Shown here: piece by piece, positions 5,315 to 36,852 of the stretch
How positions within the stretch are numbered: position 1 is the stretch's first letter
Layout: each line of letters starts with the position of its first letter
NCBI GenBank assembly: GCA_963737635.1
Contig: CAVTTL010000001.1
Location: 1,632,001 to 1,696,000 of the forward strand
DNA from: an uncultured Methanoregulaceae archaeon
GTDB taxonomy: Archaea > Halobacteriota > Methanomicrobia > Methanomicrobiales > Methanospirillaceae
Direction: 5' to 3'
DNA: 64,000 nt
The notes under the pieces: model-generated
What the model was told of the DNA's origin: nothing
The model's input: only the letters and a program-made list of their open reading frames with translations
Database searches by the model: none
Made by a program: the position numbers and the translations under genes

Positions 5315-6595
5315 ATGTCAGATTACACAACAATGTGGGAGTCACTGGGTCTTGATCTGAAGAACCATGACGCACTTCTCGCGGTTCTCGGAAAAACCTA
5401 TACGGACGTCTTCCTCTCACAAAAGAACCGCCCCGAGGGGATGAAGTACTTCGATTTTGTCATGAGCGAAGTCCATGGACTCCGTATCAAGGAGATTATG
5501 GATGCCAAAGAACAGGGACGCGTGGTGATCGGTTCGTACTGCGTTTTTGTCCCGGAAGAGCTGGTCCTTGCGGTTGACGGTGTAGCGGTCGGCTTATGCG
5601 CCGGCGCAGAGTTCAATTTCGAAGGCGCCGAAACGCTTCTACCAAGGAACACCTGCTCGCTTATCAAATCCGCTTTCGGGTTCAAGCTCGGGAAAGTATG
5701 CCCCTACCTGGAGTCCTGCAACGTTGTCGTGGGAGAGAATACCTGCGACGGTAAGAAAAAAGCCTATGAGATACTGGGTCCGCTCGTCAATGACCTGTAC
5801 ATCATGGATCTCCCCCAGACAAAATCCGGTATGGGGAAAGCCTTACTCAAGGAGGAATACCGCAAGTTCATCGCCAAACTGGAAGAAGTAAGCGGAAAGA
5901 AGATAACTGTTGCATCGCTGAAAAAGGCGGTTGAACTTGTCAATGCAAAACGAAAGGCAGTCAAGAGACTTGCTGCGCTTCGCGCTGCCGATCCGGCGCC
6001 GATATCGGGACTTGACTCCCTGCTGGTAAACCAGGTCTTTTTCCATGACGACCCGGTGCGGTTTACCGACTCGGTCAACAAACTCTGTGACGAGCTGGAG
6101 CTCCGGGTGAAAAACCACACCGGCGTGTTTCCTAAGGGCACAACCCGTGTCGTGGTTTCAGGATGCCCCATGGCCGTCCCGAACTGGAAACTGCCTCTGC
6201 TTATCGAAACAAGCAATGCGGTGATCGTCGGCGAGGAGTCATGCGTGGGAGAACGGGGCACCCGGTGGCTGACGGAAGTAAAGGGGAATACGGTGGAAGA
6301 ACTTCTTGATGCCATCACTGACCGGTATTTCAATATCGACTGCGCCGTATTTACGCCGAACCCGTCACGGGTCGACTACGTAAAAGAGATGACCAAAAAA
6401 CTCCACGCACAGGGGGTCATCCACTACAGCCTGCAGTTCTGCCAGCCCTATATCATGGAGAGCGGTCCGGTGGAAAAGGAGCTGGAAACGTCAGGGATAC
6501 CGACCCTGCGCCTGGAAACCGATTACAGCCAGGAAGATGCCGGGCAGCTCAAGACAAGGATTGAAGCATTCGTCGAGCGCCTGAAGAAAAAATGA
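5315..6595 (+). CDS. double-cubane cluster protein (2-hydroxyacyl-CoA dehydratase HgdB/FldC family)
   Basis: Cys motifs YCVF, GLCAG, NTCS, CPY, NTCDGKKK, GCP, ESCVG, DCAVF, QFCQ; ETDYS..D.GQLKTRIEAF. Confidence 0.85.
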   Translation: MSDYTTMWESLGLDLKNHDALLAVLGKTYTDVFLSQKNRPEGMKYFDFVMSEVHGLRIKEIMDAKEQGRVVIGSYCVFVPEELVLAVDGVAVGLCAGAEFNFEGAETLLPRNTCSLIKSAFGFKLGKVCPYLESCNVVVGENTCDGKKKAYEILGPLVNDLYIMDLPQTKSGMGKALLKEEYRKFIAKLEEVSGKKITVASLKKAVELVNAKRKAVKRLAALRAADPAPISGLDSLLVNQVFFHDDPVRFTDSVNKLCDELELRVKNHTGVFPKGTTRVVVSGCPMAVPNWKLPLLIETSNAVIVGEESCVGERGTRWLTEVKGNTVEELLDAITDRYFNIDCAVFTPNPSRVDYVKEMTKKLHAQGVIHYSLQFCQPYIMESGPVEKELETSGIPTLRLETDYSQEDAGQLKTRIEAFVERLKKK

Positions 6596-7344
6596 GATAC
6601 GCCGGTATTGACCTCGGATCGCGTACGATCAAGCTTGCCGTGCTGGAAAACGGCAACCTCGTTTTTTCCCGCAAGGTTGTTACCTCTCACGATCCCCTTC
6701 TGACGGCGCGGGACCTTATGGCAGGCGCGGCGTTTGACCGCATCACCGCGACCGGCTACGGGCGGCACCTGATCAAAGGGCATCTTACCTGTCCGGTGAT
6801 CAGCGAGATATCGGCCTTTGTCCTTGGCGCCCGTTTTTTTTCGACTGACTGCGATGCCATTCTCGATATCGGCGGCCAAGACACCAAGGCAATTTCCCTG
6901 GACGACCACGGCAATTTATGCAAATTCGAGATGAACGACCGGTGTGCCGCAGGGACCGGCCGGTTTCTTGAGGTCATGGCGACCGTGCTCGGTTTTACGC
7001 TGGAAGAATTCTCGGCGGCGGCTCTCTCTGCCAAACGAGCAGAAAAGATCAACAGTATGTGCACCGTGTTTGCGGAATCTGAGATTGTCTCTCTCATTTC
7101 CCAAGGGGCGGACCGGAATGACGTTGCGCTCGGTATCCACAAAGCCATTGTAAGCCGTTCAGCGGGGCTCCTCAAACGGGTTGCACCAACGGGAAAGATA
7201 TTTTTTGCCGGTGGTGTTGCGTTGAACGACTGCGTGAGATGTCTTCTCGAAAAAGAGATGGGTATGCCGGTTTTTGTACCGCCCGATCCGCAAATGGTCG
7301 GTGCGATTGGCGCCGCGTTGAGCGCATCAGAAGACAAACGGTAG
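6592..7344 (+). CDS. ASKHA-type ATP-dependent activase (HgdC/BadF family)
   Basis: GIDLGSRTIK, TGYGR, DIGGQDTK, MNDRCAAGTGRFLE, CTVFAESE; ATGA overlap with the upstream gene. Confidence 0.9.
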   Translation: MRYAGIDLGSRTIKLAVLENGNLVFSRKVVTSHDPLLTARDLMAGAAFDRITATGYGRHLIKGHLTCPVISEISAFVLGARFFSTDCDAILDIGGQDTKAISLDDHGNLCKFEMNDRCAAGTGRFLEVMATVLGFTLEEFSAAALSAKRAEKINSMCTVFAESEIVSLISQGADRNDVALGIHKAIVSRSAGLLKRVAPTGKIFFAGGVALNDCVRCLLEKEMGMPVFVPPDPQMVGAIGAALSASEDKR

Positions 7345-7388
7345 TTGAACAAATGAGAAACAAATAAAATTTTTTTTAGAAAACAGGC

Positions 7389-7679
7389 TCAATAATATCC
7401 GTATTTTTTATGAGCCTGTTCAATCGAAAGAATTTCTTGGACAATTACTCGTTTTTCTTCTTTATCGATATCATAGTACACCGTGTAACTTCGGGAAATG
7501 TGAAGACGGTAGATAACAACACCCCCCTTTAAAACCATTTTTTCCTTATCCCCACGTGTCCCCGGATAAGGCTCCTGTTCCAGTCTATCCAGTGCGGTTT
7601 TGATGATCCGACGTGTTTTGTCTGGCAGACGGTTTATATCGTCAGATAGTCCCTGCCAGAGGATCAGTTTAAAGGTCAA
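7389..7679 (-). CDS. RelE/ParE family toxin
   Basis: 96 aa, basic, YRLHISRSYTVYYDID; overlaps the antitoxin stop. Confidence 0.8.
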   Translation of the reverse strand: MTFKLILWQGLSDDINRLPDKTRRIIKTALDRLEQEPYPGTRGDKEKMVLKGGVVIYRLHISRSYTVYYDIDKEEKRVIVQEILSIEQAHKKYGYY

Positions 7680-7882
7680 TCCTTAATCTCCGAAAGAGGG
7701 ACATATTCGTCAGCCTTGCGGCTGTGCCACATCTTAACATCTTCTTCAAGTCGCCTCTTTTTACGCTCCTCGATCATATCTGCGAGGAGCTCCGCATAGG
7801 TCTGACCTGCCGATCGCATCTCTGAAAGCTCCTTCCACACCGGTTCAGTAACCGGTATCCGCTTTACCGCTTGCATGATCAT
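7676..7882 (-). CDS. antitoxin partner of RelE
   Basis: 68 aa, KRIPVTE.VW.EL..M...GQTY.ELL and C-terminal EYVPLSEI. Confidence 0.75.
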   Translation of the reverse strand: MIMQAVKRIPVTEPVWKELSEMRSAGQTYAELLADMIEERKKRRLEEDVKMWHSRKADEYVPLSEIKD

Positions 7883-7952
7883 ATTGTAAGTGCTGTAAAT
7901 ATGAATAATTAATGGTCTGTTTGTACCTGCGCCTGCTTAATAGCCTTCAGCC

Positions 7953-9194
7953 TTAAAAGAACAATACTCTCTGGTGGTTCGCAACAATACCTGTTGGTGG
8001 GTAGAAGAGAAGGTTTCCGAGATCTGCAATACCGATGGGGATGACACCGGTCAGTTTCGGATTTTTACGTATGTTCCTCGCGGCAAGGGATGGGGTGAAT
8101 GCGAAAAACTGGAGGTTTTCGCTGCCTGATGCAGCGTCTATGGCTGCCTGCAGGTTGAACCATTCCGGCGTGTTGTTGCCCGTCTGCACCCCGGAAAGGA
8201 CATACACGCCGTCTTCAATGAAGATAACGCGGGTCTGGATCTCCTTTGCTGCACACGCGATGGCAAATGCAAGGGCGCCGGACGTATATTCCGATCCATA
8301 CGGGTGCCGGGTGACAAGAATAGTCACCGGAGGGACACGCCACTTCTCATCAAAACCAAGCGTAGGCCGTATAGTCTCTTTTTTCACGGAGATAATGGCA
8401 CAATTCTCAGAAAGGATGATATGGTTGCTCCGGAACTGTGATGCAATATCCTTTAATTCCCGGATCTTCACCGGCCTGATAGTACACGCCGGAACAAGTC
8501 CCCCTTTCCCGTCGCTGGCGCAGTATCCCCGTTTTGCTGCGCACCGGGCACTGGCGGTAATCTGGCCGTGAAGGCCCCGTTTTCCTGCTTTGTCCTCAAG
8601 GTTTTTCAGTTCATCGCCGATATTTTCTGCATCCAGTGGGTTCTGGCCCTGGTGCCCGATATGGATCCCGTCAAGGTAACAGTAGAGATCCCACGAGGTG
8701 TGGGATTCAAGCGCTGCATCCAGGCAATGAAGCAGGATTTCAGATGAACGGTTCATATACGGGGAGGCCATATGGAGATACCCGATGGTGCTTGGGATCG
8801 GCTGTTCATGCTGGCGGGCATATTTCATGACGTCTTTCCAGAATGACGGCTTCCCGTTGAGTGCGAGACTGTTATGGGTGATCACCAGGTCGGGATTTTT
8901 CATCTTCAGGCGTTCGGCCGTAATGCCCCGGAGCGCGAGTTCTTCCTGATCGCAGACAATTTTTATCGAAGGCAGGGAAAGGAAATTTTCCCATATTTCG
9001 ATCATCTGCGGGTTCTGGAGACTATACAAGGCGTCACCAGTCAGAAAAAAGACAAATGCCGCGTCGCGTTCCTTGCTGGTATGGAGGAAACTCTGGGGGT
9101 TAAGGTTTAAAAAATAAAATTTCAGCAGTTCTTCTAGCCAGCCAAGCCGCTCCGGGGTAAGAGAGTCCCTCAAAAGAAAAAAATGTGCGGTCAT
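7953..9194 (-). CDS. multidomain DsrE/F/H-like sulfur relay protein
   Basis: FLTGDALYSL, SPY, YLDG, CAAKRG, HPYGSE, FIEDGVY motifs. Confidence 0.7.
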   Translation of the reverse strand: MTAHFFLLRDSLTPERLGWLEELLKFYFLNLNPQSFLHTSKERDAAFVFFLTGDALYSLQNPQMIEIWENFLSLPSIKIVCDQEELALRGITAERLKMKNPDLVITHNSLALNGKPSFWKDVMKYARQHEQPIPSTIGYLHMASPYMNRSSEILLHCLDAALESHTSWDLYCYLDGIHIGHQGQNPLDAENIGDELKNLEDKAGKRGLHGQITASARCAAKRGYCASDGKGGLVPACTIRPVKIRELKDIASQFRSNHIILSENCAIISVKKETIRPTLGFDEKWRVPPVTILVTRHPYGSEYTSGALAFAIACAAKEIQTRVIFIEDGVYVLSGVQTGNNTPEWFNLQAAIDAASGSENLQFFAFTPSLAARNIRKNPKLTGVIPIGIADLGNLLFYPPTGIVANHQRVLFF

Positions 9195-9544
9195 GCAGGG
9201 ATACTGATGATTTGACTATATCGGCATATATCTATTATGATATCCCGACCATTTTTATTGATCATTCTCAGTATTACTGGGTAATTTGGCCGAAATTTCT
9301 CTTACCTCCTTTCCCAACCTCCATAGTCACTGAGGTTCTGATATATTTGTGATTGAGGGGGGGATTTTTTTGGAGAAGAAAAATCAGAGAGTAACCGTCA
9401 ATGTACCAGCATCTGCCAATGTATCAGAACCCCTCTGCCGTACCAAAAACAGAATATTTATTTTCTCTGAACTGAACCATTACATCATCTGAACAGGCGG
9501 AATCTTTACGCGGACATCGTCCTGCGTGTCAATCCAGAACTCCC

Positions 9545-11221
9545 GTGTCCGGAATCAGGCGATCCATGCGGAAAAAACCTGCAACATCAGTGGAAAGGTC
9601 AAAAAAAAATCAATGTTCGCGGTCAGAAGCCGACAATCAGTTCAGGTTTGCGAATACCTACAACCGCAGTCTTCTGGAGGCGAGCCTTGACCCTCTTGTC
9701 ACCATCAGCCCGGAAGGAACAATAAACGATGTAAATGAAGCTGCTGTGAGAGCAACCGGTTTTTCCCGGAAGGAACTCATTGGCACCGATTTTTCGGATT
9801 ATTTCACCGAGCCTGAGAAAGCAAAAGTGGGGTACGAGACGGTATTCCGGGACGGGTCAGTAACCGATTACGAACTCCAGATCCGACACCGGAACGGTAC
9901 CCTTACCCACGTTCTCTACAATGCATCAGTCTTCAAAGACAATGCCGGAAACATTGCCGGTGTCTTTGCGGCTGCCCGTGATATTACCGAACGCAAGAAA
10001 GCAGAAGAAGAGATCAAGCGGGCGAGCACATACAACCGAAGCCTTCTCGAAGCAAGTCTTGACCCTCTCGTCACCATCAGCCCGAATGGAACGATCAGCG
10101 ATGTAAATGAAGCGGCTGTGAGAGCAACCGGTTTTTCCCGGAAGGAACTCATCGGCACCGATTTTTCGAATTATTTCACCGAGCCTGAGAAAGCAAAGGC
10201 AGGGTACGAGACGGTATTCCGAGATGGCTCCGTAACCGACTACAGCCTTGAGATCCGGCACCGGAACGGGAAGATAACCCCCGTTTTGTACAATGCCACC
10301 GTCTACCGGGATGCACAGGGAAAGGTCACCGGAGTCTTTGCCGCCGCACGGGACATCACTGAGCGGAAACGCGCTGAAGACGCCCTGCTGAAAGCCTATA
10401 ACGAGCTGGACGACCGTGTCAAAGAGCGGACCATCGAACTGCAGGAAGCCAATGCCAGCCTTGAAAAGGAGATCGCGGAACGCAAGGCAACCGCTGATGA
10501 ACTCAGAAAGAAGAGCAAGGAACTCGAACGGTCAAACCTCGAACTCCAGCAGTTTGCCTATATCGCCTCCCACGATTTGCAGGAACCCTTAAGGGCGATC
10601 TCAGGCTTCACCGAGTTGCTGGAGAAGCGATATAAAGGCCAGATCGATGAACGGGCCGACAAGTACATTAAATTCATCGTCGACGGGACCAGGCAGATGA
10701 ACCAGGTCATCCATGACCTGCTGGCGTACTCACGAGTACAGACCAAAGCTCATGAGTTTGAATTCATCGACGTGAACCAGTCCCTTAAACAGGCACTGCT
10801 CAACCTCCAGACATCGATACGGGATGAAAATGCAGTCATCAGGACAGATACCCTCCCGAGCGTTTACGCCGACGGTATCCAGATCACCCAGCTTTTCCAG
10901 AACCTGATCGGCAATGCCCTCAAATTCCAGAAGCCAGGCAATCAGCCGGAGATCAGCATATCCGTGCACAAGTCCGGCGATATGTGGAAATTCTCGGTGA
11001 CGGACAACGGAATCGGTATCGACCCCCAGTATTCCGAACGGATCTTCAAAATCTTCCAGCGCCTGCATGCAAAAGGTGAGTACGAGGGGACCGGCATCGG
11101 ACTTGCAATCTGCAAGAGAATCGTCGAACGACACGGGGGAGAGATCATGGTCCGGTCAAAACCGGGCGCAGGTTCGACCTTCTCCTTTACCCTGCCTTCC
11201 AGAAAGGAGGAAAAACCATGA
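9545..11221 (+). CDS. PAS-PAS sensor histidine kinase
   Basis: Two near-identical PAS repeats (372-bp period), [27 protein letters not shown]. Confidence 0.92.
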
Positions 11222-27690: not shown

Positions 27691-27954
27691 TCAGACGTTG
27701 ACCATCGACTCTCTCGTACCTTTGCCAGAGAGCTGTATCACATCATACGGGCATGCTTCCACGCATACGCCGCATCCTGCACACAATTCTTTCTTGAAAT
27801 CGATACTTACTGATATACCGTCTTGGACCTGGTAGATCTTCTCATTAGTTACCGGATCAAGGGTGTACAGTTCCAGTGCATCTACCGGGCATGCAGCGAC
27901 ACAATTTCCGCAGCCCGTACACCGGTTCACATTGACATGTACTGAAAATGCCAT
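27691..27954 (-). CDS. fwdG: ferredoxin subunit FwdG
   Basis: CTGCGNCVAACP and CAGCGVCVEACP, first gene of the operon. Confidence 0.88.
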   Translation of the reverse strand: MAFSVHVNVNRCTGCGNCVAACPVDALELYTLDPVTNEKIYQVQDGISVSIDFKKELCAGCGVCVEACPYDVIQLSGKGTRESMVNV

Positions 27955-28330
27955 GCTTAATCACACACACAAAACAATTACGGGAATCAAATTCCTTAAT
28001 TCAAGAGTTATCTAGAAAGAGTAATTAAACATTGTTATGTCTGCAAACGGTCAAGCAGAACATTTTAACGATACATTAAAATTTTTTAGAGTGCTTAACT
28101 CACGACATATTTTCTCTCTCGATGTTGACCTACGATGTGAATGAATTTTGCATTTTCTGGCATTTTTTGACTTACTCCAGAATATTGTTTTCATTAAATA
28201 ATTATCATTTTTCCTTCTTGCAAACAAACAGACAAAAAAAGGGTCAACGCGCGAAAAAGCCTCTCTATGACAGCAAAGATCTCAATAGCTTCTGCACCCG
28301 GTGATCTGATGCAAAAAAGAGGAGAGAAGT

Positions 28331-29269
28331 TCACAGCCTGTACGTTGTTCCAACCGTATTGAGGATGCAGGTCCCCGGCATTGCCGAAATGAACCGGTTG
28401 ATCGCATCCCAGCCGGTACAATGCATAGGCACGATATAGGCCGGATCAATCTGTCTCATCGCCTCGATCGTCGGCGCGATGACCGGCGCAAAGAGTGGCC
28501 CGGTCAGGTGGAATCCGCCAAGAACCGCAAACACGCGATCGACACCGGTGATCTTCTGGGCATACCGGACGGTATTGATGATTCCGGCGTGAGCACAACC
28601 GCTGACAACCACCAGGCCCTTGTCTTTGATATTGATGACCAGCGCCTGATCGTCGAGGATTTTATCCGGGGTCCACTGGTTATCTATCCAGGCCTCCATA
28701 CCGGGGAACCCTTTCTCAAACGGCACGGTCCGTTCGATCTCACCGGTGACGAGTACGTGGCCGGATGCAAGAAGCGATGGCCCGGCATGCTCGCGGATGT
28801 CGGCCTTGTCCTGTTTTAAAGAGACCGCATCGAGCTTGGGGAGATTGACCGGCTCTTTACCCCGGCTGGTAAGTCTGCGGCTCAGGAATGCATCCGGGTG
28901 GACGATGAGCGGGACCTGGTGGCTGGCCACCTGGAGCAGCGATGGGAGTCCCCCGGTATGATCGAAATGACCATGACTCAAGACAACCGCCTCTGCTCGA
29001 CCGGGTTCAATACCCAGCTGCCGGGCGTTGTGGAGCATGCACCCGCACGAGAGACCTGTATCCAAAAGGATGTCATGTTCCTTCCCGTTTGAAAATAGTT
29101 TGAGGTAACAGGAAAAGCCATGTTCGGCCAGAAGGGGACGGTCCAGCGCGAACGGCGGTCGCAGGTCAACGGAGGTTTGTGGGGGAACGAAGATGTCGAT
29201 GTAATTGTCCACCAGTACCGTTATCTCAGCCCGGTCAGCTTCGTGAAGCTGGGGGGAATCGGTTTTCAT
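28331..29269 (-). CDS. MBL-fold metallohydrolase
   Basis: AEHGFS, LSHGHFDHTGG, GCAHAG, GGFHL, PMHCTG. Confidence 0.9.
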   Translation of the reverse strand: MKTDSPQLHEADRAEITVLVDNYIDIFVPPQTSVDLRPPFALDRPLLAEHGFSCYLKLFSNGKEHDILLDTGLSCGCMLHNARQLGIEPGRAEAVVLSHGHFDHTGGLPSLLQVASHQVPLIVHPDAFLSRRLTSRGKEPVNLPKLDAVSLKQDKADIREHAGPSLLASGHVLVTGEIERTVPFEKGFPGMEAWIDNQWTPDKILDDQALVINIKDKGLVVVSGCAHAGIINTVRYAQKITGVDRVFAVLGGFHLTGPLFAPVIAPTIEAMRQIDPAYIVPMHCTGWDAINRFISAMPGTCILNTVGTTYRL

Positions 29270-29315
29270 AGCAGCTAATCTTGTCTGGAACTGATTGAAT
29301 AGGTTTTCATCCGGC

Positions 29316-30536
29316 TTAGAAAAACAGAATCCGCGTTGGGCGACATCTGCCAGATTCATCCGGTGGATCAAACAGGAGTGTACTAAATGCCAGAAGATCA
29401 ATCTCCTTTATTGCGGCAAGCGTTCCGTGTTTCGATATCCCCCGCCGATGGAAGGGATCGGTCAGGGCATAAAAATGCAGGTTATCATTACCGGAAAGGT
29501 GAGAGATCAATTTGGGTAGTGTACCTGTTTCTGAATCTTGGGGAACCCTGTGTTCCCCGGTAAGGGCAAAGATCCCATCTTCAAGGAAAACGACCGTGGT
29601 CTGGATGCCCTGGTGGGCACAAGCGACAGCAAAAGCGACCCCGCCATAGGCATACTCAGTAGTGTAAGGGGTGTGAGTTATCAGGATGACAACCGAAGGG
29701 GTTTGAGGGGAAATCTGTTCCTTTTGTTCTGAAGGAGGACAGTGTATATAACCCGCATTCTCCGAAAGCAGAACCGGGGTATCTTTGCTATGGCGGATTA
29801 TAACGTCCAGGTCTTTGATATGCGCAGGTCTGACCACAAATAACGAACCGATAGTCCCAAGGCCGTCGTCCCATGATTCATATCCCCGTTTGCTGGCACA
29901 GTACCTGTTGACCATAACGGTACAGGGGAGGTTTTTCCCTGCCGCAGATTTCCCGAGCGTCTCGATGGCTGTTCCTCTATTTTCGGTCTCTCCGGGATTC
30001 TGGCCGATATGACTGATATGGCTGCCATCCAGATATGCGTACAAACTAACCCCGCAATCGAGATCCAGTGCGGCTGAAAGGAACCGGACCGCGTATCCCG
30101 CCGAAGGGAACATGTAGGGCGATGAGATCTGGAGCCAACCGATCCGCGGAGGAACCGGCCCGGGACCTTCGCGGATTTGGGAGATAACGGCTGCCCAGAA
30201 TGACGGGCTTTGACTGGATTCGCTTACCTGATCCGGAAAACTCTCCCGCAGGGGATCAAGGGAAATACCCCGGATATCCAATGCATCACGGTCGCAGATG
30301 AGCCTTACCTGAGGCAACGACAGCATTGACGACCATATATGCCGGGATTCGGCTTCGTTGAGGCTGTACAGGGCGTCCCCGGTAAGGAAAACCACAAAAT
30401 CCATAGATGTGGCGGATCCCTGATTACCGGAACCTTCGGCATGTGGTTTTTGGTAATGAAATTTGAGTACCTCTTCAATCCACGACAACCGTTCCTGCGT
30501 TACGACAGTACTTAAGAAAAGAACGTTCGCGGTCAT
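29316..30536 (-). CDS. multidomain DsrE/F/H-like protein, paralog of 7953-9194
   Basis: Same motif order: FLTGDALYSL, SPY, YLDG, CASKRG, TPY, FLEDG, RILFF end. Confidence 0.7.
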   Translation of the reverse strand: MTANVLFLSTVVTQERLSWIEEVLKFHYQKPHAEGSGNQGSATSMDFVVFLTGDALYSLNEAESRHIWSSMLSLPQVRLICDRDALDIRGISLDPLRESFPDQVSESSQSPSFWAAVISQIREGPGPVPPRIGWLQISSPYMFPSAGYAVRFLSAALDLDCGVSLYAYLDGSHISHIGQNPGETENRGTAIETLGKSAAGKNLPCTVMVNRYCASKRGYESWDDGLGTIGSLFVVRPAHIKDLDVIIRHSKDTPVLLSENAGYIHCPPSEQKEQISPQTPSVVILITHTPYTTEYAYGGVAFAVACAHQGIQTTVVFLEDGIFALTGEHRVPQDSETGTLPKLISHLSGNDNLHFYALTDPFHRRGISKHGTLAAIKEIDLLAFSTLLFDPPDESGRCRPTRILFF

Positions 30537-30838
30537 CTGCGGTCTGTCCTAGGTAATGTATGTAGATCAGGGATATTATCAATGTGACTTACGAATCCGG
30601 GCCGGTATTTACGGAAAAACGCCAAAAAAGAACTGAAGGTTTTGATAAGTTAACGATTGGTTGACATTGTTGCCGGTTGGTAAATTTACCCCTAACAAAT
30701 ATTTTTATTTTAAAAGCGTTCTTTATAGCATCAAAAAGAACGCACTAAAAGAGGATTGAGATTATGTGGCACTTGTCACATCAACGATCAATCTTATTGT
30801 AAGTCTTATATCTTTGATTATACATTTACCAAATTCAA

Positions 30839-31795
30839 TCAATTTGACTCTAACGAACAGCTCCCTGTTGCGGGTTCTTTGGATTTTATTGTAAAGTATA
30901 TACGATATTTATATCCAATTTTTGGCCGATAAATAACCCACTCCATCAGATTATCCTTCCAAATGGGCATAACCTTCTGGTTCTTATACATCATCTCGCT
31001 ACTCCACATTCTTTCATCGGAAAAATCTCTTACTTCAATATCAAGAATGTCACCCGTTGCATCTGGTCTAATTGGTGAGGTGATTATGTGCGTTTTTTTC
31101 AGTTCTCCTTCGAGTTTTGCACGGATTCTGAGCTTTTCTGTGACGGCATTTATCGTGACTTGCACCCAATCAATATCTCCTCTTAATGCAAATTCGAAAG
31201 CTTTTGCATGATATTTAATTCGGATGTCACGTGTTTCTTGCGGTGGCGCATGAACTGGAAATTTAACTTCGAATTGGTTATCTAACTTATCCTGATAATC
31301 TGGGGAAGTTCCGGCGTGATATTTAACATCCTCTATAGTGTAATTCATTTTTTTCCCATCTTTACAAAATTCTATACTTTCAAAAGTTGGGTTAGGTGTG
31401 ATTGGATCAAATGAATTGTTAAATTGATAGAGATTGTAGTTATGTTGCATATTATTCCGGATTACCCGAACTTCTTCCATAAGAGTTCCATTTTCTTGGG
31501 AATGCTCATCAAAATACAAATTTTTTTCAAAATTTAAGATTGTAATATCATGTGCTACACAATCATCAATTCTTAATTCGTCGAGCTCCTTAACAAATGT
31601 TCTAACATAGAGCAAGAACGTTAAAATCATAAAACCCAAAAGAAATGCAACAATATAGAGAATTTTTGTAGATAGATCAAGAGAATAAACACAACTTGTA
31701 AGTAATGATATTAGGGCAACTATAATGAGAACTAGTATGAAGATAAGATTCGTTTTGATGGTGGAATATAACCATTTCAATCTATGGGGGTACAA
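30839..31795 (-). CDS. AT-rich hypothetical protein, 2 TM helices plus beta-rich soluble domain
   Basis: 318-aa ORF; true start may be ATG 31840 with an indel. Confidence 0.7.
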   Translation of the reverse strand: MYPHRLKWLYSTIKTNLIFILVLIIVALISLLTSCVYSLDLSTKILYIVAFLLGFMILTFLLYVRTFVKELDELRIDDCVAHDITILNFEKNLYFDEHSQENGTLMEEVRVIRNNMQHNYNLYQFNNSFDPITPNPTFESIEFCKDGKKMNYTIEDVKYHAGTSPDYQDKLDNQFEVKFPVHAPPQETRDIRIKYHAKAFEFALRGDIDWVQVTINAVTEKLRIRAKLEGELKKTHIITSPIRPDATGDILDIEVRDFSDERMWSSEMMYKNQKVMPIWKDNLMEWVIYRPKIGYKYRIYFTIKSKEPATGSCSLESN

Positions 31796-32084
31796 AAAAG
31801 CACCTTACTTTGGAATCTAATTTTTACCCTTCTCTGGCATTGTAACATATCTCCACATACAGTATAGATATCTGCTAGAGATATAAAAAGTTGGTTAACG
31901 GGCGTATTTTTTACTTCTCCGCTCTTACCGTGCCCAAAATAGGGTCACAATGCCTTTTTACTCCGCGCTTTCTCATAATTTTACTTATGATACAACATAT
32001 GATCTCATTCGTAAAATGTGTAGGGATAGTAAATAAAACAGTAATTACAGTAACATTTATATCAGTAAAAGTCGTACAAAATGA

Positions 32085-32852
32085 GTGGTAGAAAGGAGTG
32101 CTAAAATGAAAGTTGGTACGTATGAAATACCTGATTACAGATTAATCCCGACAATGATTGAATCAACAAAAATAATTTATGACAAGTTTAAGGGAGAAAA
32201 CGCTCCTGATAACTTAACTGTGGCAAACTTACTAGGTCACAAATCAGTGAGTGGCTCTCTTCTCACAAAACTTGGCAACCTTAGAAGTTATGGGTTAATT
32301 GAGAAACGTGGAATTAAAGTCACGGAACTAGGAAAAAACATTACATATCCTATAAATGAAGAGGCAAGAGATGAGGCTATAAGACAAGCTATTTTGAATA
32401 TCCCGTTATGGGCGGAATTATATAGAAAGTTTGGAGTAAACTTACCGAGAGAAAACTTTTGGGTGGATTTAAAACAAATTACGGGTTTAGAAGCCCCAGA
32501 ATCGCAAAAACTCGCCGATATGGTTCGGAATTATTATATAGACGACACAAAATATCTTAATATTGTCGAGAAATCCGTCCCGCCCGCAGATTCAAAATCA
32601 CAACAAGCGCGCGCAGAGGATACGAACGATAGAAAAGATGTTATGGACACATTGCAAGTCAATCTAAAATCTGGGACGATCCCCTTCACACAGTTCCAGT
32701 TTGGAGAATCTAAAGTTGTAATTGCAGACAGAGCGCACTTGGACATTATCAGTGGTTTCCTTTCAAATTTGAAGGACACCTTAGACAAACAAAACATCCC
32801 ATTGGGAAAACCAGAGTGCAAACCAGAAGGAACGAAAGAAAACAAAATCTAA
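32085..32852 (+). CDS. AT-rich hypothetical protein with winged-helix-like N-terminus
   Basis: VANLLGH...KLGNLRSYGLIE..GIKVTELG pattern; TTTATA box at 32056-32061. Confidence 0.7.
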   Translation: MVERSAKMKVGTYEIPDYRLIPTMIESTKIIYDKFKGENAPDNLTVANLLGHKSVSGSLLTKLGNLRSYGLIEKRGIKVTELGKNITYPINEEARDEAIRQAILNIPLWAELYRKFGVNLPRENFWVDLKQITGLEAPESQKLADMVRNYYIDDTKYLNIVEKSVPPADSKSQQARAEDTNDRKDVMDTLQVNLKSGTIPFTQFQFGESKVVIADRAHLDIISGFLSNLKDTLDKQNIPLGKPECKPEGTKENKI

Positions 32853-32868
32853 TTTATTAAAAACAAGT

Positions 32869-32956
32869 GCCGGGATCGCCAAGTTTGGCATGGCGGCTGA
32901 CTTATAATCAGCTAATCCCCCCAAGGATTTCGTGGGTTCGAATCCCACCCCCGGCG
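32869..32956 (+). tRNA. class II tRNA with Ser-type body and UAU (Ile) anticodon
   Basis: Acceptor GCCGGGA/CCCCGGC plus G73, D-stem GCC/GGC, anticodon stem GCTGA/TCAGC with loop CTTATAA, variable stem AATCC/GGATT, T-arm GTGGG-TTCGAAT-CCCAC. Confidence 0.9.
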
Positions 32957-33759
32957 TTAATAGATTATAGTTCTCAGCTAAGAAAAATCTTTCTGTGTTA
33001 TCCTGTTTCTTTTGGTCGTGTTACTTTCTCCATATCCCGCGGAATATCCTACCGGTAAAAAGTCTGTTGAAGTAACAAATTCTGATAAGGTAGAACTCGA
33101 CAATGCGTTTGAATTGAAATAATAATTTGTTTCGATCCAAATATTATTTTCGTTCTTTTAGTAGTCATTAGTAGTTGCGTGATACTGCTCTGAAATTCGT
33201 GTAAAATCGTTCAATTCCTTCAAATAGTGTTTTAAAGCTGTTCGTTTATCTGAGCGTCCGCCGGCTCTTTTTTGTATTTCCCGCCGGGGATTGTGGGAAG
33301 AACATGTGTACCCCTGTCAGACGACACAATGACTGCCGATATTCTCGGCCTGTTTTTCGGGCAGTATAACACCGCCCCGGGACCCTCAATCCGCAGCAAA
33401 TCCTTGAGCTCTGCAACCGCCATGTCCCTCCGAAACATCCCACGGTGACGGCGATAGTCAGGCTTCACCTGTACAGGCATCAGACTTCGCCGACCTCTGC
33501 CCTCGATCAACGAGAAAAGGTCGGGTACTATGTTGTAGCGTAAAATGGCATCGTGTCCTTTGAGGTGCGCATGGATGTGGTCCCCCGTCCTTTTATATAA
33601 GGAGATACACGTTTTTTGATCTGTGACGCGAGGATCGGAACCCCGCACGCGTTCTTCTTTCAACGAGCGAGCCCGATGTCCCACTGTATCCAACATATTT
33701 TATTTTCCGCATCGTTGAACCATCCATAGCCTCTATATTATCGAATTTCACAATGTAAT

Positions 33760-34164
33760 TTGATAAGCATGGTATGGATCCAGATATATGATGAGATTGG
33801 GGTAATAAACGATGAAATGATAGAGAAGATCTGTCCTGATACCCCTAAACAATATAAGGAATGGTTTAAGTTTTACGCGTATATTAATGGAGAACCGTAT
33901 TTAATTCATTCTGAGGATTTGCCTCGCAGAATTAATGAAACTATTCAAATAACGGCAGAAATTGTTCCGAATTGTAAAACGGATTTTAATGAAAAACAAG
34001 AAGCATATGAAGAAGCCTTCAAAAACGCTTACTCAGAAATTTATGACGAGGAAAGGAAGATCTTCTCGAAAATAATGTCTGTACTTTTCGAGGCAAAGAA
34101 AACAGACAACAACCAGATCATTAATTTCAGAGATGAGCTTCTCCAAGCGAAAAGTCACGAATGA
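33760..34164 (+). CDS. AT-rich hypothetical protein
   Basis: 134-aa ORF in AT-rich DNA. Confidence 0.55.
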   Translation: MISMVWIQIYDEIGVINDEMIEKICPDTPKQYKEWFKFYAYINGEPYLIHSEDLPRRINETIQITAEIVPNCKTDFNEKQEAYEEAFKNAYSEIYDEERKIFSKIMSVLFEAKKTDNNQIINFRDELLQAKSHE

Positions 34165-34340
34165 TTGACATTTTTTTGACCGGTCAATCCGGCACCATGC
34201 CCCGGCACTCCGGGGAGTACCGCCACAGGATCATGCTCCATGCCTGCTCCTCTTTCTTTGTTTAACACGATGCTTTACACCACACTATCTCTCCCGCCCG
34301 GGGAGAAGTTATCACCGATCAACGCCAACAGGATAATCCC

Positions 34341-34893
34341 ATGATTCTGGTGGACTGGCAGCTCCGGGATCGCATCTCCCGCGGCCATATCAGGATCGAT
34401 CCTTACGATCCACATCTGGTACAGCCCAATTCGATCGATATCCGGCTTGGTAACCACTTTGTCTGGTACACTCCGGGTAACCAGGTCATCGATCCGTACG
34501 ACAAAGCAAGCGTGACTGCCGATGTTGGCGAGACACACGCAGATTCTTTCGTTCTCATGCCGGGTCAATTCGTCCTTGCCGAGACTCTCGAATGCATCGG
34601 CCTACCCGACAACATCGTCGCTACCATCGAAGGAAAATCAAGCATCGCCCGGCTCGGCGTCACGCTCCACCAGACCGGCGGCTGGATAGATGCCGGCTTC
34701 CGGGGCACTATTACCCTCGAGATGGCAAACGTGAACGCACGGCCGGTCAAGGTCTACGCGGGCATGCCGGTTGGCCAGGCTCGTTTTCTACACGACTGAG
34801 CGGGCAGAGAATCCGTACGACAAAAAGACCGATGCCAAGTATCTCGATCAGCAACAGGCTACGCTCTCCCGGTACCATGAGAATAAGAAATAA
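34341..34893 (+). CDS. dcd: dCTP deaminase, frameshift near 34775
   Basis: [34 protein letters not shown]-terminal AKY..Q in another frame. Confidence 0.92.
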
Positions 34894-35006
34894 GGGCATA
34901 TTGTACCCATATCCCCCAAACCACTGGATAACCGGTGGGCAATGAGGGTATATACCTTAAGAACCCATTTTATACGAATAAATCGTTCCGGAGTGGAGAT
35001 GAAGCA

Positions 35007-36852
35007 ATGCGACTTCTTCTGATACATTCAGATTACATCGAATACGAAGCAAAAAAGAAGACGAAGATGGCAGAGGAGGGAGCCGTTCTCGCAGACCGCG
35101 AGGAAGACGCGCTTACCGTCTTTGCCGCAGTTGAGTCCGTCGATGAAGAAGACCTTGAGGGCGTCATCCTCCAGGCTGTTGAGGAAGTAAAAAAGACCGC
35201 TGCACAGGTGAAAACGGACAAGATCGTCATTTACCCGTACGCTCATTTGTCAAACGATCTTGCCCGGCCAGAAGTGGCAGTACCCGTTTTGAATGCCCTT
35301 AAAGAAGGACTTGCCGCAGAAGGATTCGCCGTGAAACGTGCACCGTTTGGCTGGTACAAATCCTTCAAGATCTCCTGTAAAGGCCACCCGCTTTCCGAGC
35401 TTTCAAAGACGATTCTTCCCGGTGAAGAAGGAGAGGCAGTTTCAAAGAAGCTCGGCAAGAAAGAGGTCACCCATGACTGGTTTGTCATAACCCCGGACGG
35501 CACAACCCACGATTATCACCAGTATCTCGATACTACGCCGTTTGGCTGTCTGGTAAAAAAGGAACTGGGTGTCGCTGAACCGACCGGCGGCGAGCCGGCC
35601 CATGTGGATCTGATGCGGGCTAAAGAGGCTCGTCGATTACGAGCCGGCCAGCGACGTCGGATGCCTGCGCTGGATGCCCAAAGGCAAACTCATCCGCGAT
35701 CTTCTGGCCGATTATGTTCTTGCCATTGTCCTCCCCTACGGCGCGACCCCGGTCGAGACGCCGGTCATGTACGACCTTGGCGACAAAGCTATCTACGAAC
35801 ACGCGGACAAGTTTGGCGAACGGCAGTACCGGTTCAAAAGCAACAACCGGAATATGATGCTCCGGTTTGCTGCATGCTTTGGCATGTTCTCGATTATGCG
35901 GGACATGCATATCTCGAAAAATACCCTTCCTTTAAAGATGTACGAACTCTCCACGTACTCTTTCCGGCACGAACAGAAAGGTGAAGTGATCGGCTTAAAA
36001 CGCCTGCGTGCGTTTACCATGCCCGATATGCACTCGCTCTGTACCGATATGCCAGAGGCAATGAAGTGCTTCGAAGAGCAGCTTGCCATTGGCTGGCAGA
36101 CCGGCCGGGACTTCGAGACCCAGCTCGTCGCTGCATTCCGGTGCACAAAAAAGTTCTATGACGAGAACGAAGCATGGGTTAAGAAGATCGTAAAAGACTC
36201 CGGCTGCCCGATGCTTATCGAGATCCTTTCCGAGCGCGTCCATTACTGGGAAGCAAAGATCGACCTCGCAGTTATCGACGGCCAGAACCGCCCGATCGAG
36301 AACCCGACCGTTCAGATCGATGTCGAGAGCTCGACACGGTTCAATATCAAATACTTCAAGGACGATGGTACCCCGGTATACCCGCCTATCCTCCACTGCT
36401 CCCCGACCGGCAGCGTAGAGCGTGTGATCTGTGCGATTCTCGAAAACATCTCGACCCAGAAGGTCCCGGCACTGCCGACATGGCTCTCTCCGGTCCAGGC
36501 CCGTATCGTACCGGTTGCCGAGCGCCACACCCTATATGCGCAGGATATTTGCACGAGCCTCAATTCACAGAACATCCGGTGCGATGTTGATGACCGGGAT
36601 GAGAGCGTGGGCAAGAAAATCCGGGAAGCCGGTATGGACTGGGTACCCTACGTGATCGTTATCGGTGATGAGGAAATGGGCAGTAAGAATCTCACCGTTA
36701 CCATTCGCAGGAAATCCGAGCCGAATAAGCCTTACAAGGAGCAGATGACGGAAGAGACCCTCGCGGCCGCTATAAAGAAAGAGATCGCAGGCAAACCCTT
36801 CCGACCGCTCTATACACCGCGCAAACTCTCCCTGAAAGCACGGTATATCTGA
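35007..36852 (+). CDS. thrS: threonyl-tRNA synthetase (archaeal), frameshift near 35627
   Basis: [34 protein letters not shown] editing domain; [26 protein letters not shown]. Confidence 0.95.

Follow-up and report, generated by a model that had tools for sequence, protein, structure and literature searches.

What might a tRNA with an isoleucine anticodon on a serine-like body do directly behind the gene of a putative regulator? This question is raised by a 64,000-nt stretch of the genome of an uncultured Methanoregulaceae archaeon (GCA_963737635.1, contig CAVTTL010000001.1, positions 1,632,001 to 1,696,000 of the forward strand), hereafter called the window, in which an AT-rich island harbors a gene for a winged helix-turn-helix (wHTH) protein followed on the same strand by a class II tRNA gene with the anticodon UAU. 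A first-pass annotation had combined these two genes with a divergently oriented neighbor encoding a protein with two transmembrane helices (2TM) into a horizontally acquired module of regulator, tRNA and membrane effector, possibly a defense or translation-interference system, or else a provirus remnant. Comparison with sister loci suggests that the conserved unit is the pair of wHTH gene and tRNA and not the three-part module, and we tentatively read this pair as a mobile, toxin-antitoxin-like cassette of two genes in which the wHTH protein would restrain a mis-decoding tRNA. The observation made in the first-pass annotation was confirmed, its coordinates, TATA-like strings (31882-31889 and 32056-32061) and wHTH-tRNA gap all proving correct, and its interpretation is partly supported; it had foreseen neither the transposons that carry the cassette in sister loci nor the replacement of the tRNA by the toxin ParE.

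The pairing was followed through the loci of the wHTH family, each of which was counted once per place even if it was retrieved under several identifiers. At 12 of 32 loci with a family open reading frame (ORF; hmmsearch E ≤ 1e-20), ARAGORN placed a same-strand tRNA starting 2-137 nt past the stop codon. Two loci add to these, namely L050 with a tRNA seen by Infernal only (UAU, G73, 33.5 bits) and L052 with a UAU anticodon arm and a long variable arm that were read by eye and are cut by the contig end. A phylum search contributed four further loci, one of them with a tRNA, so that the total rose from 14 of 32 to 15 of 36; the tRNA starts 1-137 nt downstream on the same strand, the gap being 1-57 nt in 13 of the 15. 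The set of 32 holds the near-duplicate pairs L026/L027, L034/L036 and L037/L040, the sequence of three of its loci extends less than 150 nt downstream, and the five weaker family matches (E 9e-10 to 8.5e-8) possess no linked tRNA. The background in the host genome amounts to 15 of 3157 ORF ends (ORFs of at least 150 aa) with a same-strand tRNA within 140 nt. The co-occurrence of the wHTH gene with serine-body UAU tRNAs, a check proposed in the first-pass annotation, was found at eight linked loci. What stands of its module is the wHTH-tRNA pair; the 2TM gene is absent from every other wHTH locus examined.

In the window, the placements by ARAGORN and Infernal agree on a tRNA that begins 15-16 nt past the wHTH stop. 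An archaeal TATA box is normally centered about 26 nt upstream of the start. Since the gap, in which TTTATTAA lies 6-13 nt before the tRNA 5′ end, has no room for a promoter at this usual distance, both genes are likely co-transcribed, as had been argued from the bare sequence before. Downstream of the tRNA, the motif AAAAATCTTTCT has a counterpart at equal distance in 5 of 12 sister loci when searched with a regular expression and in three more by eye, and it may represent a terminator or the boundary of the cassette.

Seven sister loci (L017, L016, L047, L053, L052, L050 and L028) contain, past the wHTH stop, a conserved element directly ahead of the tRNA 5′ end. It consists of a purine-rich, Shine-Dalgarno-like GGAGG(T) and a short hairpin with an AUG, the stems of which covary (GCCC/GGGC, UCCC/GGGA, GUCC/GGAC), and harbors a mini-ORF of three codons (MGA, MGS, MGK, MDK, MGS, MGF and MSK); UAAUUAA or UAGUUAA then leads straight to the tRNA. 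This element may link the processing of the tRNA to occupancy by ribosomes, or it may be a separate small RNA element; the 15-nt spacer of the window holds no such mini-ORF. In L047 (G192), the DNA that separates the hairpin element from the ARAGORN tRNA additionally holds a tRNA-like stretch (about 2290-2390) uncalled by ARAGORN, with acceptor-like pairing over 7 bp (GCGTACG.../...CGTACGC) and a good T arm.

Every one of the linked tRNAs is aberrant. Eight loci have a long-arm body with UAU (the window, L015, L017, L046, L029, L028, L050 and L052), L016 combines CCA (Trp) with a long-arm, G73 body, and the tRNA of L076 has the anticodon UAA (Leu), a long arm and G73 in place of A73. A second, Gly(CCC)-like class I tRNA is present in L017, with an 8-nt loop (CUCCCCAA), and in L028, with a 6-nt loop. 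The linked tRNAs of L031 and L047 likewise have 6-nt anticodon loops (8 nt if the closing pair opens), that of L037/L040 reads ACU with C33, and L053 carries GCU on a class I body together with an irregular UGU tRNA. When the nine alignable long-arm members were compared (Infernal alignment, RNAalifold consensus), all showed a 7-bp acceptor and a 5-bp T stem, and 19 of 27 pairs exhibited compensatory changes. All nine have G1:C72 and G73, and eight have G30:C40.

Since the cloverleaf is kept by compensatory changes and G1:C72 and G73 are invariant, the linked tRNAs are probably selected RNAs and not decaying copies. A few irregularities could suggest dying pseudogenes, or hybrid leftovers of tRNA-gene integration beside a gene that is common on islands: the T region of L050 is irregular, as is the anticodon stem of L053, the acceptor stem of the window tRNA contains an A7.C66 mismatch, and an allo-tRNA(UAU) pseudogene has been described among bacterial tRNAs in the part of Mukai 2017 that we consulted (PMC5389517). 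Decay would, however, hardly concentrate the abnormalities in the anticodon or its loop while leaving acceptor stems fully paired in most members, Infernal scores at 47-57 bits, and orientation and distance to the wHTH gene constant. Integration usually occurs at the 3′ end of a tRNA. The wHTH gene lies on the 5′ side, unlike this usual geometry, and we consider an origin by decay or as a scar highly improbable.

Which amino acid would the window tRNA carry? Infernal scored it at 50.9 bits (gathering score 29, E 7.8e-9) and displayed its long variable arm. Its acceptor measures 7 bp and its T stem 5 bp, the anticodon loop reads CU-UAU-AA, the variable arm is 19 nt long, and the tRNA carries the discriminator G73 as well as G30:C40. 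Plain identity to the host tRNA-Ser (52-58/88) and tRNA-Leu (56-60/88) does not separate these two classes; the host tRNA-Ile(GAU), at 50/88, lies below any of them. A covariance model built from the nine odd tRNAs scored the four host tRNA-Ser at 82.5, 79.0, 76.9 and 68.1 bits and the five host tRNA-Leu at 50.4-57.5 bits, the latter even below some class I tRNAs. The discriminator is G73 in 4/4 host tRNA-Ser and A73 in 5/5 host tRNA-Leu. According to the sections of PMC9976931 available to us, serine identity resides in the variable arm and G73, with a weaker contribution of G30:C40, and does not depend on the anticodon, and G73 acts as an antideterminant for the leucyl-tRNA synthetase (LeuRS) of Haloferax volcanii. 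The host possesses a bacterial-type seryl-tRNA synthetase (SerRS, 510 bits), and no methanogen-type SerRS was found in its genome. Judged by these features, the window tRNA is in all likelihood of serine type, in agreement with the serine body recognized in the first-pass annotation. A genuine tRNA-Ile(UAU) was considered as well; such a tRNA has a class I body with a short variable loop and A73, and the 19-nt arm and G73 of the window tRNA do not agree with it.

Among 108 genomes of the genus, four matches scored above the canonical tRNA-Ser plateau of 82.5 bits. Three of these adjoin a wHTH gene (G000, G319 and G004), and the fourth is an orphan long-arm tRNA(UAU) in G028 (L018, 9141-9531). 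The orphan looks intact (54.3 bits) and is 85% identical to the window tRNA over positions 27-90. An IS6-type end (GGTTCTGGTGCG...) precedes it by 276 nt, an rve-type transposase gene follows it, and neither a wHTH gene nor a remnant of one was found upstream of it.

The ordinary decoding of AUA appears to be present in the host, which has TiaS (138.7 bits) and a tRNA-Ile2(CAU)-like gene with a close resemblance to tRNA-Ile(GAU). For this reason the island tRNA would be redundant for the host, and by the known rules it should insert serine at AUA codons. Two further ARAGORN calls in the host genome are unusual for the lineage and may be false, a 96-nt tRNA-SeC(UCA) at C1:623973-624068 and a tRNA-His with the anticodon AUG at C1:1924866-1924940.

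We therefore turned to codon usage, a comparison between island and host that the first-pass annotation had called for. Per 1000 codons, ATA is used 9.7 times in the 937 long ORFs of the host versus 20-45 times in the four island ORFs, and TTA 4.7 versus 7.5-40 times. In the eight UAU-linked wHTH genes, ATA aligns with I/L/V/M/F in 57% and with S/T in 7% of the aligned residues, the corresponding values for ATC being 57% and 5%. Because both codons share this split, the cassette's own gene most probably reads AUA as isoleucine, and a private recoding of AUA to serine in the genes of the element is excluded. The island's preference, ATA being used two to four times and TTA up to eight times more than in host ORFs, together with the ATC-like alignment of ATA, would suit a helper tRNA. 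Such a tRNA would serve as an agmatidine-independent decoder of AUA (UUA in L076) for the A/U-rich genes of the element, as in phages, would be charged correctly or harmlessly in the GC-richer host, and would leave the wHTH protein as a regulator only. Viral sequences also lend themselves to this explanation. A pattern of UAU anticodon arm, 17-30-nt gap and T arm matched 57 viral contigs (L083-L139), and for nearly all of the matches listed ARAGORN reports an 87-95-nt tRNA(UAU) with a long variable region, often with the loop UAGAU; these tRNAs may be plain isoleucine decoders. Most of them have A73 and an encoded CCA, a widespread phage type that is distinct from the archaeal G73 set.

Several observations nevertheless make a helper function quite unlikely. 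G73 in nine of nine members and the serine-like profile predict charging with serine and rejection by LeuRS, and the tRNA body bears no likeness to tRNA-Ile. The same scaffold also presents CCA (Trp), which is no rare-codon helper, and partner tRNAs whose anticodon loops measure 6 or 8 nt cannot decode in the ordinary way. Both tRNA-Ile2 and TiaS are in place in the host. Furthermore, the transposases of UAU elements use few ATA codons: 3/29, 4/28 and 1/24 of the isoleucine codons in L015, L028 and L046 (4-14%), as opposed to 7/15, 7/17, 5/16 and 9/27 (31-47%) in the transposases of elements without a UAU tRNA (L053, L040, L076 and L030). This difference is only a hint, as the three UAU-element transposases are close kin with a higher GC content at third codon positions, and no conserved ATA column was found across them.

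The position behind the wHTH gene is not reserved for tRNAs. In L020 (Methanoperedens) and L051 (G327), a gene for a ParE toxin (PF05016, cut-off 23; 35.0 and 36.1 bits) directly follows the wHTH gene, 75 and 22 nt after its stop, respectively. L014 (G019) contains a broken ParE copy, the first 45 residues of which are 60% identical before it breaks off, and its wHTH protein groups, with a support of 83/86, as the nearest relative of the window protein in a maximum-likelihood tree built from 27 members. The types of partner are intermingled across this tree, and its starred branches force at least four changes for UAU and at least two for ParE. At three related metagenome loci, a different, long-stemmed structured RNA of about 95 nt occupies the slot (L033:3700-3830, L035:2870-3000 and L036:2300-2420; folding z-scores -4.6, -3.5 and -4.6), and the wHTH protein of L036 is sister to that of L037 with its tRNA(ACU). 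Since a tRNA, ParE or a structured RNA can follow, the wHTH gene appears to be the constant first gene of a cassette with an exchangeable second position, which can be taken by a classical translation toxin or by an aberrant tRNA. In L051 (1215-3696), the wHTH-ParE pair is located directly after the end of an rRNA operon (23S, tRNA-Cys, 5S); a second 5S copy after this operon is more divergent (62 versus 87 bits).

The structured RNA in the tRNA slot raises the question of whether the tRNA is translated with at all. It could be a non-decoding, tRNA-like RNA that serves the cassette or the transposon in cis or as a regulator, for instance as a signal for RNase P/Z processing and 3′-end stabilization, as a separator of the wHTH and transposase messages, or as a ligand of the wHTH protein, its anticodon being important for recognition by a protein rather than for codon reading. 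This would fit L015, L028 and L046, in which the tRNA has the wHTH gene on one side and the transposase gene on the other, and the conserved hairpin with mini-ORF just 5′ of the tRNA in seven loci, and in the portion of Mukai 2017 at hand most allo-tRNA(UAU) were judged to be perhaps unused in translation (PMC5389517). On the other hand, a pure processing signal would need neither G73 nor G30:C40 nor a canonical T loop, the anticodon UAU is retained at eight linked loci across divergent sequences, and ParE in the same slot would be left unexplained. A non-decoding role thus seems unlikely to us.

The wHTH protein itself belongs to a large family of which little is annotated. Among 1.84 billion representatives, 1525 clusters match at E ≤ 1e-3 and 90 at E ≤ 1e-30, and all named members are annotated as 'hypothetical' apart from one with the JGI label 'PadR family'. 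Members of the family were detected in 17 of 400 further genomes from the order, spanning three genera, in 5 of 400 other genomes of a phylum-wide sample, and also in two Candidatus Methanoperedens genomes and 18 metagenome contigs, and the viral contigs contained no relatives of either the wHTH or the 2TM protein. The start codon of the window gene is backed by the alignment of homologs and preceded by GGAG at a distance of 8-11 nt; an upstream GTG at 32085 would give 255 aa. In an AlphaFold2 (AF2) model with a predicted local distance difference test (pLDDT) score of 82, residues 1-150 form a very confident helical, double-winged-helix-like domain, residues 162-191 a disordered linker, and residues 195-229 a small beta-hairpin with a helix. 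The structure predictions proposed in the first-pass annotation agree with a winged-helix-like fold of this protein, with Foldseek returning no match in the PDB at E ≤ 0.001, and failed for the 2TM protein, the AF2 model of which (pLDDT 39.5) is too low in confidence for use in a fold search.

By sequence profile, the only PDB match of the wHTH protein is the wHTH of Csa3, which is weak (E 0.005). In structural alignment with VIA-align, the top match is BrxA (7zge; Z 7.1, 141 residues), next its relative 3bhw and then the recognition domains of FokI (Z 6.9, 152 aligned) and N.BspD6I, all with Z below 8, where according to the tool's own warning a match may reflect a common arrangement. Regulators of the MarR/MntR type rank below FokI and N.BspD6I and cover only about 65 residues of the model. 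The best-ranked fold matches, to residues 2-157, are BrxA of the bacteriophage exclusion (BREX) system (PDB 7zge) and the recognition domains of FokI-type enzymes. The protein differs from BrxA in sequence-family membership, as none of 64 family members matches the BrxA Pfam models, and in its neighborhood, since no BREX genes are located at the window, where the adjoining ORFs are orphans, the DsrE paralogue and dcd. From the model, we call the 248-aa protein a putative DNA binder of double-winged-helix-like build rather than a BrxA.

Several of the sister cassettes are carried inside IS6-family transposons. An ORF of 395 aa is related across 8 of 30 clustered loci, and its copy in L015 is a DDE transposase of the IS240/IS6 family (52.4 bits). 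Terminal inverted repeats with GGTTCTG as their first letters enclose the cassette in L015 (986/5830), where 23 of 26 positions are alike, and in L028 (2724/6277), where the 24-nt arms are 88% complementary and an inner 17-nt pair 100%. The L015 element contains the wHTH gene, the tRNA-UAU, the transposase, a Panacea-domain protein and two more ORFs; that of L028 contains the wHTH gene, two tRNAs, the transposase and an NYN-domain protein. The same transposon end is found just upstream of the wHTH gene in L046 and L052. Sister loci sit among defense-type genes (Panacea-domain, NYN, VapBC-like, MNT/HEPN). In L016 (G001, 6294-9812), the cassette of wHTH gene and tRNA-CCA adjoins a duplicated 3′ end of thiC, and a pair of MNT/HEPN-like genes separates the full thiC from this fragment, which looks like the trace of an insertion at the end of thiC. 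G004 resembles the window in having the cassette without a transposase. That the window island is itself an IS6-family transposon with passengers was considered and rejected: it contains no transposase gene and no GGTTCTG termini, the sole GGTTCTG within 29001-36000 falling inside the DsrE gene. Four IS240 transposase genes are present elsewhere in the host genome.

How might such a cassette work? In the reading that we tentatively prefer, the wHTH protein takes the position of regulator or antitoxin and the serine-type tRNA(UAU) that of the toxin. Both would be made as one transcript, from which RNase P would free the tRNA, and the bacterial-type SerRS of the host would charge it with serine whatever its anticodon. 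A tRNA no longer held down by the wHTH protein would place serine at AUA codons and corrupt the proteome; the sister tRNAs would correspondingly insert serine at UGG or UUA, or cause frameshifts at GGG. The outcome could be that the mobile element is stabilized, or that infection by AT-rich invaders, whose genes would use AUA and UUA two to eight times more than those of the host, is aborted. Each of these steps is plausible because of the precedents of yeast tRNA-Ser variants and of the CreT RNA toxins, to which we return below.

A number of findings weigh against this reading. The window tRNA has the A7.C66 mismatch in its acceptor stem, and the long-arm UAU tRNAs of the 57 viral contigs leave room for plain isoleucine decoding. 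ATA is not purged from the UAU-linked wHTH genes (50 of 170 isoleucine codons compared to 132 of 362 in the other 20 genes), and since about 1% of the host codons are AUA, the poison would not spare the host. ParE-linked loci are few, two intact and one broken among 36. The C-terminal domain is common to ParE-linked and tRNA-linked wHTH proteins, which better fits a general regulator than a tailored antitoxin, and the lone tRNA of G028 does not fit a strict toxin-antitoxin logic. Lastly, in the available part of the study by Mukai and colleagues, none of six allo-tRNA(UAU) variants converted to CUA decoded in E. coli, and the authors considered most allo-tRNA(UAU) to be unused in translation (PMC5389517).

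The island that carries the cassette in the window is an insertion. In the host genome (2.46 Mb, GC content 0.516, tRNA introns present), the GC content drops to 0.30-0.42 across 30600-33199 (400-nt windows) and to 0.36-0.38 at 33600-34199, compared with 0.49-0.58 in the flanks, while the stretch 33200-33799 within the island is not AT-rich (0.48-0.51). A second, short dip to about 0.375 is located at 27800-28400 upstream of the DsrE paralogue. In G020, a complete genome of the same genus, the matches to 28341-30580 and 34298-35098 of the window lie about 0.8 kb apart, 3.7 kb in the window, and the DNA between them is non-coding. Because the flanks are only 0.8 kb apart there, the 3.7 kb at about 30580-34298 represent inserted DNA, and the AT-richness between the DsrE paralogue and dcd and the horizontal acquisition proposed in the first-pass annotation both held. 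The island flanks contain no direct, inverted or att-like repeats beyond short, chance-level ones of 17 nt or less, and no second copy or paralogue of the island exists elsewhere in the host genome. The coordinates of the features are collected in Table 1.

Table 1. Features of the inserted island and its immediate surroundings (positions refer to the window).
Feature	Position	Strand	Remarks
DsrE-family paralogue	29316-30536	-	Pfam DsrE, 48.6 bits
AT-rich inserted island	30580-34298		GC profile and alignment of flanks with G020; between DsrE-family paralogue and dcd
2TM ORF	30839-31795	-	318 aa; two N-terminal hydrophobic helices; divergent from wHTH gene
TATA-like string 5′ of 2TM gene	31882-31889	-	read from sequence; candidate
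TATA-like box of wHTH gene	32056-32063	+	about 45 nt before ATG; read from sequence; candidate
wHTH gene	32106-32852	+	248 aa from ATG; stop 32850-32852
Spacer, wHTH stop to tRNA	32853-32867	+	15-16 nt; contains TTTATTAA
Class II tRNA, anticodon UAU	32869-32956	+	88 nt; Infernal; ARAGORN places 32868-32957
Motif AAAAATCTTTCT	32983-32994	+	about 25 nt after tRNA
orf154	33232-33696	-	in GC-normal stretch; doubtful gene
orf134	33760-34164	+	orphan ORF
dcd	34341-34799		Pfam DCD, 157 bits

None of the four island proteins has a significant match in Pfam, PHROGs, NCBIfam or PADLOC. The 2TM protein has two relatives, 68% and 57% identical, among 5.8 billion protein clusters searched. For orf134, one non-self relative was obtained, which is 53% identical and annotated as hypothetical; orf154 has no match in the protein atlas, shows low recognition and is without a relative in the 100 further genomes of the genus that were searched. 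We propose to view the 2TM gene, orf134 and orf154 as unrelated cargo or debris outside the conserved cassette. A three-part defense or translation-interference system of wHTH protein, tRNA and 2TM protein is suggested by the divergent arrangement of the 2TM and wHTH genes, with the TATA-like strings between them that had been noticed before, and by the defense-type genes around the sister loci. With so few relatives of the 2TM protein in the clusters searched and its absence from the other wHTH loci, we regard it as very unlikely. The same holds for a provirus remnant, since viral contigs contain no relatives, no PHROG or PADLOC match was obtained, no integrase was detected among the island ORFs in Pfam and PHROG scans, in line with the earlier statement that none is visible, and att-like repeats are missing from the flanks.

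If the tRNA is indeed a regulated mis-decoder, it would be a natural case of deliberate mistranslation as a weapon or addiction device, as well as a source of orthogonal, anticodon-blind tRNA scaffolds. It is more doubtful, yet conceivable, that mobile elements of archaea, and by extension of bacteria, carry 'poison tRNAs' silenced by a dedicated wHTH protein. Such a set might comprise serine-charged tRNAs for AUA, UUA and UGG together with frameshifting tRNAs with 6- or 8-nt anticodon loops, which once released would corrupt translation and hit genes rich in A/U codons, for instance those of AT-rich viruses and plasmids, hardest. With a tRNA as the toxin, this would constitute a new class of toxin-antitoxin or abortive-infection system and provide the first function for allo-tRNA(UAU)-like genes, which have been unexplained since 2017. 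The literature on mistranslating tRNAs in defense or toxin-antitoxin contexts and on phage UAU tRNAs with a variable arm yielded no account of a wHTH-tRNA pairing.

When compared to characterized systems, the cassette shares with type II operons such as ParDE and RelBE that a DNA-binding protein is encoded first and the toxin directly after it. This order of antitoxin and toxin is found for the wHTH family with ParE in L020 and L051, and in broken form in L014; the window has the tRNA instead. It differs from these operons in that the upstream protein is a double-winged-helix-like protein of about 240 aa, as opposed to the small ParD or RelB, and in that its partner in the window is an RNA. 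An archaeal RNA toxin is known from haloarchaea, where, according to the part of PMC8501985 at hand, the type VIII CreT RNAs attack the decoding of the rare codons AUA and AGA and are transcriptionally repressed. Both CreT and the candidate proposed here would hit the AUA/tRNA-Ile(CAU)/agmatidine system and be silenced by repression, but CreT, a mini-ORF RNA, works by sequestering a host tRNA and has Cascade-CreA as its repressor, whereas here a tRNA would be the toxin and a wHTH protein its repressor. Membership in the CreTA group was rejected; the spacer of the window contains no mini-ORF, and the mini-ORFs of the sister loci (MGA, MGS, MDK and others) are devoid of tandem rare codons.

For the mis-decoding step, the sections of PMC6125640 available to us describe yeast tRNA-Ser with an isoleucine or phenylalanine anticodon, which stays serylated and is lethal upon accumulation. 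As in the cassette proposed here, toxicity is controlled through the level of the tRNA, but the yeast variants are artificial and controlled by RNA decay instead of a neighboring regulator gene. Nematodes possess nev-tRNA-Ile(UAU) and nev-tRNA-Gly(CCC), variable-arm tRNAs that are charged with leucine in vitro (excerpts of PMC3333845 and PMC4300185). These are similar in their class II body with UAU, in the companion with a CCC anticodon and in that both kinds would transgress the genetic code. They differ in being eukaryotic, in having neither a linked protein gene nor a mobile element as far as these excerpts go, and with respect to the CCC types, which here are class I with 6- or 8-nt loops.

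The closest published parallel is the allo-tRNA(UAU) described by Mukai 2017 (PMC5389517, as far as the text was accessible to us). Bacterial allo-tRNAs belong to the serine type and have branches of 8/4 or 9/3 and anticodons other than those for serine, most commonly UAU. In Acidobacteria and soil metagenomes, allo-tRNA(UAU) genes have toxin-antitoxin and transposon genes in their vicinity, irregular tRNAs (GGU, GCU) form polycistrons located close to allo-tRNAs, their function having been left open by the authors, and two of six allo-tRNA(UAU) variants tested killed E. coli. The tRNAs of the wHTH cassettes are alike in combining marks of serine identity (long arm, G73) with the non-serine anticodons UAU, CCA and UAA, in being accompanied by irregular tRNAs (GGU, GCU), as in L031 and L053, and in the toxin-antitoxin and transposon neighborhood of the sister loci, the window itself containing neither a transposase nor a protein toxin. 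They differ in the 12-bp branch, which is 8/4 or 9/3 in the bacterial allo-tRNAs and 7/5 in the window tRNA and all nine aligned members, in their archaeal host, in the single wHTH family encoded immediately upstream on the same strand, in the alternation with ParE and in the IS6-family carrier. New here is thus an archaeal version with canonical cloverleaves, a fixed upstream protein partner and the alternation of that partner with ParE, by which a bacterial curiosity becomes a testable two-gene hypothesis.

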